This document shows, piece by piece, positions 15,001 through 18,000 of a stretch of DNA of 30,633 bases. Position numbers: made by a program. The stretch covers positions 1 to 30,633 of the IMG/VR virus record IMGVR_UViG_3300029888_000014; one strand, given 5' to 3'. Source of the stretch: a virus (Duplodnaviria > Heunggongvirae > Uroviricota > Caudoviricetes). Position 1 is the stretch's first letter. Each line of letters starts with the position of its first letter.

Positions 15001-18000
15001 GTCAGTGGCACTCTGATGTTTTTCTCCACCCATGCCAGCGCCTTATCACGCTCAATGGCGTTAACCCGGTCGCATTTTTCCTTCGACAGCTTCATGCCAG
15101 GAATAACAGGCTTACCATCCACCCGGGTGGCTCCACGGCAGATGGTCCAGATCCCCGCACCATCACGGTATGCCGTGGTGTGGTTACCTTCCTTTTCATC
15201 CAGAAACTGGTCGAGAATGTCAGGCGCAGGCGCACCAGCGGCAATCAGCGCCAGAACGGCAGCCGACAGGCCGTATTTGATTTTGGTGTTCATGGATATT
15301 TATCAGGATTTATCGGTTTCTGCCCACGGACAGGTTTATCTGTTCCGGTCAGTGAATTAAGGTTGTGATTCCGGTGGAGTCTTCAGAGAACAAGTAATTA
15401 TTCCCGGTAGCTTTCCTTTGTAGGTTATCAACACATTCTGCGCCTCTAAAATTACGGGGCGCTTTTCCGGCAACGGTTCGTTCCCTTCACATAACCCGGC
15501 AGCAACATCCATGAAAAACTGCTTCGCCTGCTTTTTCGCCTCAGCTTCGTAAAACTCCAGCGTGGCACCTTCAGTACGGTCAAGACTAATCGCCACATCT
15601 GGCAACAACAGTGACGGATACCCACCAACTTCCAGTGCCACAGTAACAGTAATCTTATCCGGGTAATTATTTATCCCTTTAACAACCAGTTCGTATTTTT
15701 TCTTCATCGCTTTACTCTCCCCGCGCCGCCTTACGCCGGTCCTCTCTGATTTTGAAATACAGGTTAGTCAGGTACGTCAGCAGCCCAAACAGCAGACTCC
15801 CCAGCACGCCTATTGCCGCCCACTGAGACGGGGAAACCCTGTCCAGCAACTGCAGGAACCAGTAGCCCGTTCCCACCGCTGACGTGGTGTATGACACACC
15901 TGTTGTGATTTTTTCCATCTGGTACATACCCCGTCTCCCGTTATCCGGAAGCTCACAACAATATAAAGACCACCGGCACACACCGATGGTCCCTTGCGCA
16001 GGCTTACATCATCATGTCGCTGTCAGGTGTGGGTTCACCGCCATCTGAAGCACTCCCGTCACCCGCGATACCTTCCGGCTCCGGAACCGCTGGTACGCCC
16101 AGCAGCTCATCCAGAATGGCATCCACTTCTGCATCAAGACGCGACTCAAGGTTCTGGCGGAGTTTCTGTTTCAGTGCGCTCAGGACTTCTTCAGAGCGCA
16201 GGACTTCCTTCACTGCCTCAGCAGTGACCAGGGATGTGATTTCTGACATGGGATTTTCTCGTTGAAAGGTGTTGTCAAGAAAGTGACTACGGAATGAGCG
16301 GATCTTCGGGTTTGCTTCCGGCTGACTGACTGGCGCTGATTCTCTCAGCGGCCCTTTTATCAATCTGCCTGCGCCAGAAATCGCGCACTGCCCTGTACCC
16401 ACCCGAAAGAAGATACATAACACAGACTGCCATACAGAAGTACAGCATTACCTGATGAATAAATGTCATAATTTCTTACCGTTATGGTTGACAATGAGAA
16501 CTGTTTTCATTTAGAAATGATTGATGTCGAAAGCATCTTTTCTTTACATTCTCCATTGGGATTACCTCCGCCAGCTTCCATTCCTGCCGCTGGCGGCCTT
16601 TTTTTATCATGCCGCAGCATCCGCGTTGTTCACTTCCACCTTCACACTGTCAATCAGCAGCGTATATGTCGCCGCCTTTGATATGCCTGTCAGTTGCAGT
16701 TTGTCCGCCGCCCCTGATGCCGGAGATTTCACCAGTGTGAACGGCGTCCCCCGTTTCTCATCCAGTACCGGCGTCACCTGAATGCTGTTGTTTCCGGCAA
16801 ACTCAAAAGCCAGTGTGTGCCATCCGTTATCAAAGACCCCGAACGTATCCAGCTTCGCATTCGGCTTCTTGTGGTGCATCGCGTTCAGGTTCGTCGCATC
16901 CGTCTGCAGGAAGAAGGACATCAGCATGTCGTTGCCTTCCTCTGCCAGCGTCACTCCCTCCGGCAGGGACGACAACTGCCAGTAAATGCCCAGGGCAAAC
17001 TGATTCGGCACCAGTGAACCCGGCAACTTAAACCGTACGCTCACACGTCCCCCCTTCTTCAGTAACTCCACTCCCTGTCCGGCTGCATCATGCTCCAGAA
17101 ACCAGATGTGGTTTTCCGGTTTATTCAGTTGCAGGGCCTTACCTCCCGTAGCCCCCGCATCACTGACCACCGCTTCAGCAATGTTTTTGTTAACATTGTC
17201 TCCGCTCGCCGGTTTGTGATAATAGCGCCAGCCCTGTGATGCCAGGTCTTCGCCGGACGCCAGCAGACTCATCAGGGTTCGGTTACTGACCGGACCTTCC
17301 GGCTCTCTCTCCGTACCTTCACCGGAAGGTCCGGTGGGCTTCACCGTATCGGGCTGTTTTCCGGTAATGAATTCAGCGGTTCTCCCGGCATGCACAAGAA
17401 TCGCCGTTGCCAGACGGTCGGAAATAATCCCACGACGTGCCCATGATCCAAAATGCGTTTTACGGTCAGCCGTCGTCCAGGTTTTGGCGTCCGTTCGACC
17501 ACCGGCTCCGTAATACCCAATATCCGCAACATCCGGATCTTCTGACGGCTCGTTGGTACCCACATTTCGCCCGTTTTCATCCGTCATAAACGGCACAAAG
17601 AAGATTTTTTTTGCGGATTTCGTCTTATATGCACCATACACCGCATCGTATTGCGAAGAATAAGTCTGCTTCCAGTAGTAGGTCGTGTCGCCACAAATCC
17701 AGGGAACTGATGACGGAGAGCCCCCGAGACACTGACCTCCGAATTCCGACAGGTCAGAACGATATTTTTCCACCATGGAATCAAACAGCCCCGGCTGAGT
17801 GGCGTATGCACCCTGTTTCAAATCAAACTCGCCCTGCATCCAGACCACTGCAAGCAGAATATTTTTAGGGTTGGCCTTCAGTGCGGCCTGAGTACGGGTA
17901 AGCAGGTCCTTGTACAGTGGCTTATCTACACCCCAGCGTGCCGAGGTCTCGCTTGCGCCGGTGGATTCGCTGAAGGTACCTTCATCGCCCGCCAAAAATG

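Follow-up and report, generated by a model that had tools for sequence, protein, structure and literature searches.

The window, by which we mean the whole 30,633-nt stretch of IMG/VR virus record IMGVR_UViG_3300029888_000014 analyzed here, carries on its minus strand a 116-aa ORF with an ATG start. The gene order along this strand is DUF1378, DUF826, holin, the 116-aa ORF, lysozyme, and Rz with an embedded Rz1 (Table 1). The holin stop codon (15712–15714) and the ATG of the ORF (15705–15707) are separated by 4 nt. A previous inspection of this DNA, the sequence-only reading, had described a soluble 116-aa ORF between a pinholin and a SAR endolysin gene, starting 5 nt after the holin stop and ending about 60 nt before the endolysin. 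The DUF1327 match, the dN/dS values and the conserved spacing described below indicate that the ORF is real, and the description was accurate except for the strand, which is minus, and one nucleotide of the upstream distance; the downstream distance measured 63 nt. The claim that the protein has no transmembrane segment also held, as the maximal 19-residue Kyte–Doolittle mean was 1.16, and the hydropathy scan found no hydrophobic N-terminal stretch or signal in the window protein.

Table 1. Coordinates of features in the window, followed by convergent ORFs of related loci
Feature	Position	Strand	Basis or remark
Rz spanin, likely start ATG 14117	13650..14117	-	ORF and profile matches
Rz1 lipoprotein ORF embedded in Rz	13712-13897	-	ORF and profile matches
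Gap ORF, 57 aa	14119-14292	-	PHROG match, no assigned function
Gap ORF, 90 aa	14217-14489	-	PHROG match, no assigned function
Gap ORF, 43 aa, another frame	14336-14467	-	
Gap ORF, 70 aa	14470-14682	-	PHROG match, no assigned function
Lysozyme (R21-like), 177 aa, Ala/Gly-rich SAR-like N-terminus	14760..15293	-	PF00959, E 1.5e-24
AU-rich endolysin leader CGATAAATCCTGATAAATATCC, last 22 nt of the ydfR-lysozyme spacer	15294-15315	-	Without canonical Shine-Dalgarno sequence
Spacer, ydfR stop to lysozyme ATG, 63 nt	15294..15356	-	
ydfR-family CDS, 116 aa and stop	15357..15707	-	Pfam DUF1327; 'YdfR family protein' in RefSeq relatives
Codons 74-116 and stop: linker and 'T' module (PEKRPVILEAQNVLITYKGKLPGIITCSLKTPP), end ESQP*	15357..15488	-	
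Codons 1-73: acidic core	15489..15707	-	Strands 5-14, 18-27, 37-43; helix 50-74
Spacer, holin TAA to ydfR ATG, 4 nt	15708-15711	-	
Shine-Dalgarno sequence of ydfR, GGGGAGAG	15715..15722	-	Within last holin codons, followed by TAA 15712-15714
Class II (S21-type) holin, 71 aa, possible dual start M1/M4	15712..15927	-	Pfam Phage_holin_2_1 'Bacteriophage P21 holin S', E 9e-33
DUF826 gene, upstream of holin	16004-16249	-	Pfam
DUF1378 gene, upstream of DUF826 gene	16287-16469	-	Pfam
DUF1737/SASA/DUF6645 (NanS-p-like) esterase	16607-18577		
Three tRNAs, Met-CAT, Arg-TCG, Arg-TCT	19071-19320		Precede esterase
AraC-like regulator	19347-20060		
Convergent ORF, locus L005	2744-3040	-	
Convergent ORF, locus L006	3243-3524	-	
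Convergent ORF, locus L007	5278-5529	-	
Convergent ORF, locus L008	5282-5506	-	
Convergent ORF, locus L009	4967-5515	-	
Convergent ORF, locus L010	4060-4413	-	
Convergent ORF, locus L098	1879-2160	-	

Viewed in full, the window resembles an intact late region of the Stx-phage type from which stx is missing, with Q, an AraC-like gene, three tRNAs, a NanS-p-like esterase, the lysis genes, terminase, portal, a protease–capsid fusion and a tape measure protein. The layout from 16607 to 20060 is that of a toxin-less Stx-phage-like element, with only ~500 nt where stx would be. The protease–capsid fusion is a single 723-aa ORF (6667–8838, minus strand) in which a ClpP-like protease domain is joined to a major capsid domain. 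The endolysin–Rz gap (14118–14759, minus strand) holds tandem small ORFs with C-terminal hydrophobic segments and matches to PHROGs that have no assigned function, of which ORFs the 57-aa and 90-aa ORFs are paralogues, and a strong terminator-like hairpin (15-bp stem and U-run, 14669–14637) lies within the 70-aa ORF. The same slot in Stx2a phages contains an ant gene in place of the small ORFs.

Membership of the product in the DUF1327/YdfR family, proposed by the sequence-only reading, was established by profile search. The match to DUF1327 (PF07041) scored 155.1 bits against a gathering cut-off of 25 (E 5.8e-46, HMM positions 1–92 of 93), and all 23 family members examined passed as well. 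The window protein also matched PHROGs 2091, 406 and 1085, which have no assigned function, and had no match in NCBIfam. A Pfam match to ROF (E 0.16, seen in 2 of 23 family members) was taken as noise. NCBI and UniRef already list an identical protein, found on 15 contigs, under the name 'YdfR family protein [Escherichia coli]', and megablast with the gene DNA matched 3017 of 5426 complete E. coli genomes, where the annotation likewise reads 'YdfR family protein'; RefSeq relatives have the same gene order as the window. A tblastn search of the phage collection identified a YdfR homologue in 101 records, every one an Escherichia phage, including H-19B, BP-4795, Stx2 phage 86, mEp460 and Evi. 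In all three records whose annotation was inspected (H-19B, mEp460 and Evi) the gene is flanked by holin and lysozyme, and the order holin–ydfR–lysozyme–Rz was found in 80 of the 80 best IMG/VR relatives, wherever the contig permits. The family is narrow: clustering at 90% identity gives 280 clusters, and a set of 1.84 billion proteins contains 91 representatives at 50% identity. We conclude that the ORF is, almost certainly, a genuine YdfR-family gene of the E. coli lambdoid prophage type, both in identity and in anatomy. The finding is correct, ordinary and not new: public annotation already covers the gene together with its family name, position and exact sequence, which removes the novelty that the sequence-only reading had implied.

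The resemblance in position to ydfR of the Qin prophage, pointed out by the sequence-only reading, was confirmed, the K-12 order being essQ–ydfR–rrrQ–rzpQ. K-12 YdfR (P76160) shares with the window protein its family, its cassette position and a start 4 nt after the holin stop. BLASTP aligned the two with 47% identity over residues 1–74 (E 8e-24), whereas the tails are unrelated. K-12 YdfR ends in a ~30-aa helical His/Lys-rich tail, with a stop codon that overlaps the start of rrrQ; in their place the window shows the conserved 'T' module and the 63-nt spacer. Stx phages (H-19B, BP-4795, Stx2 phage 86 and most Stx1a and Stx2c phages) encode a 93–94% identical protein in a like slot and cassette type, from which the window copy differs essentially not at all, the Stx-phage forms being 114 aa or longer mosaics. 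The ORF between S and R was left unannotated in H-19B.

We examined the locus for signals that might govern expression of the gene. Its Shine–Dalgarno sequence is embedded in the 3' end of the holin gene, and 77 of 80 related loci preserve the 4-nt gap between the holin stop and the ATG. A consensus scan, which is weak evidence, detected no sigma-70-like site around 15708–16000 on the minus strand, and the sole nearby minus-strand hairpin that might serve as a terminator (15627–15612) is weak, lies inside the ORF and is one of 18 such matches. Since the gene has no apparent promoter of its own and its start is coupled to the holin, its product most likely derives solely from the Q-dependent late transcript, with translation coupled to that of the holin. 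Thus, co-expression with the lysis genes, which the sequence-only reading had deduced from position, is backed by the anatomy. The same reading had also offered that the gene could be a moron. Like lambdoid morons such as lambda bor and lom, ydfR is optional cargo among conserved late genes with a patchy distribution, in this case in a hypervariable slot. Unlike them, the window copy showed neither a separate promoter nor a separate terminator in our scan and is translationally coupled to the preceding late gene, so that only part of the label applies. For K-12 ydfR, RNA-seq showed near-zero expression in the lysogen-like state (PMC13232886).

The predicted protein consists of two parts. AlphaFold2 modeled the core with pLDDT values of 72–92, while residues 78–116 were of low confidence and the tail is predicted to be disordered. 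The pI of the window protein is 5.5 and that of its core 5.3, and every core examined has a pI of 4.5–5.3. Stand-alone homologues of 72–76 aa with 25–39% identity occur in other genera; Y53 and E54 are invariant in the alignment and Y5 is nearly so. Phage Evi has a YdfR version of 72 aa. Common to K-12 YdfR and the stand-alone homologues, the core is the ancestral unit. The tail (PEKRPVILEAQNVLITYKGKLPGIITCSLKTPP to ESQP) is strongly conserved among E. coli members and absent from K-12 YdfR. The dN/dS ratio was ~0.25 for the core (median of 1053 pairs of divergent core alleles) and ~0.42 for the C-terminal module, which places both core and tail under purifying selection.

Searches by profile and by structure were uninformative as to function: a profile search of PDB sequences gave no match even at E ≤ 10, Foldseek against BFVD and PDB returned nothing at E < 0.001, and PADLOC defence families gave no match at E ≤ 1. 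The 329-aa long variant produced only a chance match. Direct RNA binding by a dsRBD-like or HPF-like fold was considered and set aside, as the core is acidic in every member examined and had no significant structural match.

The slot between holin and endolysin proved to be variable in content. Proteins encoded there in 80 loci are 114–116, 162–176, 213–268 or 296–329 aa long, with the 114/116-aa forms accounting for 45 loci. The long forms run on in frame past the tail into a coiled-coil and a ~115-aa C-domain without a Pfam match. The slot gene can be described as a mosaic of four modules, namely the DUF1327 core, the T module, the coiled-coil and the ~115-aa C-domain, found as long forms (L020, L022 and L076), as core-less forms (L124, L106, L146 and L179) and as split ORFs (L095/L096); in P0152 the modules occur in another order. 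Locus L045 has an IS1 insertion in the slot. From the varied module combinations and lengths we conclude that the holin–endolysin slot is a mosaic, hypervariable locus.

The gene is also optional. The holin of the window occurs in 427 phage records, of which 101 (~24%) have a YdfR homologue and ~76% do not, confirming the earlier statement that the pinholin/SAR-endolysin pair is normally contiguous. Among phages grouped by organism name, a YdfR homologue was found in 41 Stx1a, 15 Stx2c and 2 Stx2a phages, the corresponding numbers with this holin being 47, 17 and 124. In cassettes without ydfR the endolysin takes over the holin-coupled start site. In a Stx2a phage of this kind, the holin stop is followed after 4 nt by the lysozyme ATG, which is served by the same embedded Shine–Dalgarno sequence as ydfR in the window. 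Most ydfR-bearing cassettes instead have the lysozyme leader CGATAAATCCTGATAAATATCC followed directly by ATGAAC, or a one- to two-base variant, without a canonical Shine–Dalgarno sequence; the leader differs except for its last bases in 5 of 75 loci, and K-12 keeps its last part. Where IMG/VR loci contained the leader and at least 900 nt upstream, a ydfR core preceded it in 89 of 97 cases and a core-less relative at the holin-coupled start in 7. No RNA structure above shuffled controls was detected in the ydfR–endolysin spacer of the window (z = 0.24). As a side effect, the presence of ydfR costs the endolysin its holin-coupled start, and the endolysin is translated from the AU-rich leader. 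This leader, linked to ydfR-type inserts, contains a GATAAAT direct repeat (window 15294–15315 and 120 IMG/VR loci, L100 onward).

More distant DUF1327 homologues (72–99 aa, from Yersinia and metagenomes) lie outside lysis cassettes, in lambda-like tail-tip clusters (L006, L007, L008, L009, L010, L093, L094 and L098). They are inserted at the M|L, L|K or I|J junction, always in the orientation of the late genes. This placement argues against a dedicated lysis role for the family; late expression is what the lysis and tail contexts have in common. DUF1327-core genes are very often directly followed by a small convergent ORF on the opposite strand (Table 1), and such an ORF is also found between ydfR and lysozyme in E. 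coli IMG/VR loci, e.g. L029 and L025. Among the convergent ORFs, six or more PHROG families with no assigned function are represented (25324, 10490, 6806, 18578, 1853 and 18136). The window copy of ydfR has no convergent partner ORF.

Taken as a whole, our best explanation, which we offer tentatively and which stands at somewhat less than an even chance, is as follows. ydfR is optional cargo between holin and endolysin, carried in the S21-type lysis cassette of a lambdoid E. coli prophage. It starts 4 nt past the holin stop with the Shine–Dalgarno sequence in the holin 3' end, and its translation is most likely coupled to that of the holin. The product is a small, acidic, soluble protein with a conserved ~73-aa core and a conserved tail predicted to be disordered, and would not form part of the hole-forming or wall-degrading machinery. 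The core is probably a protein-binding module. By homology with K-12 YdfR, whose first 72 residues are enough for binding to the catalytic N-terminal half of RNase E and, more weakly, to RNase G, it might attach to the host RNase E during late infection and so influence RNA decay. In its more general form, namely a cytoplasmic accessory protein that is expressed late, is directed at a host partner and stands outside the pinholin/SAR-endolysin machinery, we hold this view with low to modest confidence.

Phage modulators of RNase E, namely phiKZ Dip, T4 Srd and T7 gp0.7, act on the host RNA degradosome. These too are small phage proteins, and the proposed parallel with them rests on the binding of K-12 YdfR to Rne(1–598). 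The direct experimental evidence comes from a single paper: a two-hybrid screen that used RNase G as bait picked up residues 1–72 of K-12 YdfR, and signals were stronger with RNase E constructs (PMC13232886). Strep-tagged YdfR co-purified Rne(1–598) together with DNase-resistant nucleic acid (PMC13232886); the acidic core argues against direct RNA binding, and this nucleic acid may be indirectly associated. The 47% identity between the window protein and K-12 YdfR covers the RNase E-binding region (residues 1–72). On the other side, the interaction was reported for the K-12 allele only, under overexpression, and K-12 YdfR lacks the conserved tail found in the window protein. The full-length K-12 YdfR fusion interacted with only one Rne construct (PMC13232886), overproduction of K-12 YdfR changed few transcripts and left growth unaffected (PMC13232886), and ydfR is essentially silent in K-12 under standard conditions (PMC13232886, RNA Biol 2026). 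We consider an RNase E-directed mechanism, argued by homology, to be a lead that is more doubtful than the explanation as a whole. DUF1327 has one passing mention in the literature, and ydfR is listed in a single table of a streptomycin-survival screen by overexpression, which we considered too slight a basis.

A bolder extension, which we regard as speculative and improbable, is that the DUF1327 core represents a new class of phage binder of the RNase E/G catalytic domain, expressed from the late operons of Enterobacterales lambdoid phages. Its recurrent position directly before convergent (antisense) cargo would then point to a part in shielding the long late transcript from decay set off there, and the E. 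coli forms would use their conserved, disordered tail as a second docking motif.

Alternatively, the gene could be conflict or fitness cargo with no link to RNase E, an interchangeable module of the hypervariable slot that serves anti-defence, exclusion or host takeover through another target. Much of what we observed at the slot would fit: four length classes in 80 loci mark it as highly mosaic, core-less versions begin at the holin-coupled start, modules exist as separate ORFs in L095/L096, convergent ORFs of at least six PHROG families very often accompany DUF1327 genes, and the core is small and acidic like many phage inhibitor proteins. However, anti-defence genes are usually expressed early rather than late, neither PADLOC nor the structural searches connected the protein with defence systems or known inhibitors, and the window copy is without a convergent partner. 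We judge this possibility unlikely, if only a little less credible than the RNase E-directed mechanism itself.

The sequence-only reading had also suggested a lysis regulator. Such a protein could set lysis timing by acting on the pinholin or SAR endolysin, or simply by taking the coupled start so that the endolysin must use its weak leader lacking a Shine–Dalgarno sequence. The invariable position between holin and endolysin in E. coli phages, and the junction swap together with the conserved AU-rich endolysin leader in ydfR-bearing cassettes, are in keeping with this suggestion, as is the flagging of a K-12 ydfR mutant in an envelope-integrity screen, as cited in PMC13232886. We suspect, however, that in the K-12 deletion the resistance cassette acts in a polar manner on the lysozyme gene that follows, which would account for the envelope phenotype. 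The comparison speaks against a regulator in other respects as well: the gene is dispensable in most cassettes with this holin, the window protein has neither membrane segment nor signal, distant relatives reside in tail clusters remote from lysis genes, and the holin may itself encode an antiholin through its dual start. A literature search identified no paper on YdfR and lysis. A role in lysis timing is accordingly improbable. Least probable of all is that the 116-aa form is a harmless remnant of a 268–329-aa protein, generated by deletion between the T module and the endolysin leader and kept for the coupled start, for although the long forms run on in frame exactly after LK(T/M)PP, the short forms end in several joints (ESQP, LA, KW and E) as independent deletions predict, and the tail is predicted to be disordered, the short forms are the majority (45 of 80 loci), core and tail are under purifying selection, stand-alone cores of 72–76 aa exist in other genera, and the likewise short K-12 YdfR is a stable protein with a binding partner (PMC13232886).

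YdfR-family genes reside in prophage lysis cassettes of more than half of the complete E. coli genomes and of most Stx1a and Stx2c phages, and the tail-cluster homologues and recurrent convergent partner ORFs are possible leads for later work on the family. If the RNase E lead is true, the manipulation of host RNA decay by T4, T7 and phiKZ would have a counterpart in lambdoid phages, there in the late phase, in which the stx and lysis transcripts are produced.
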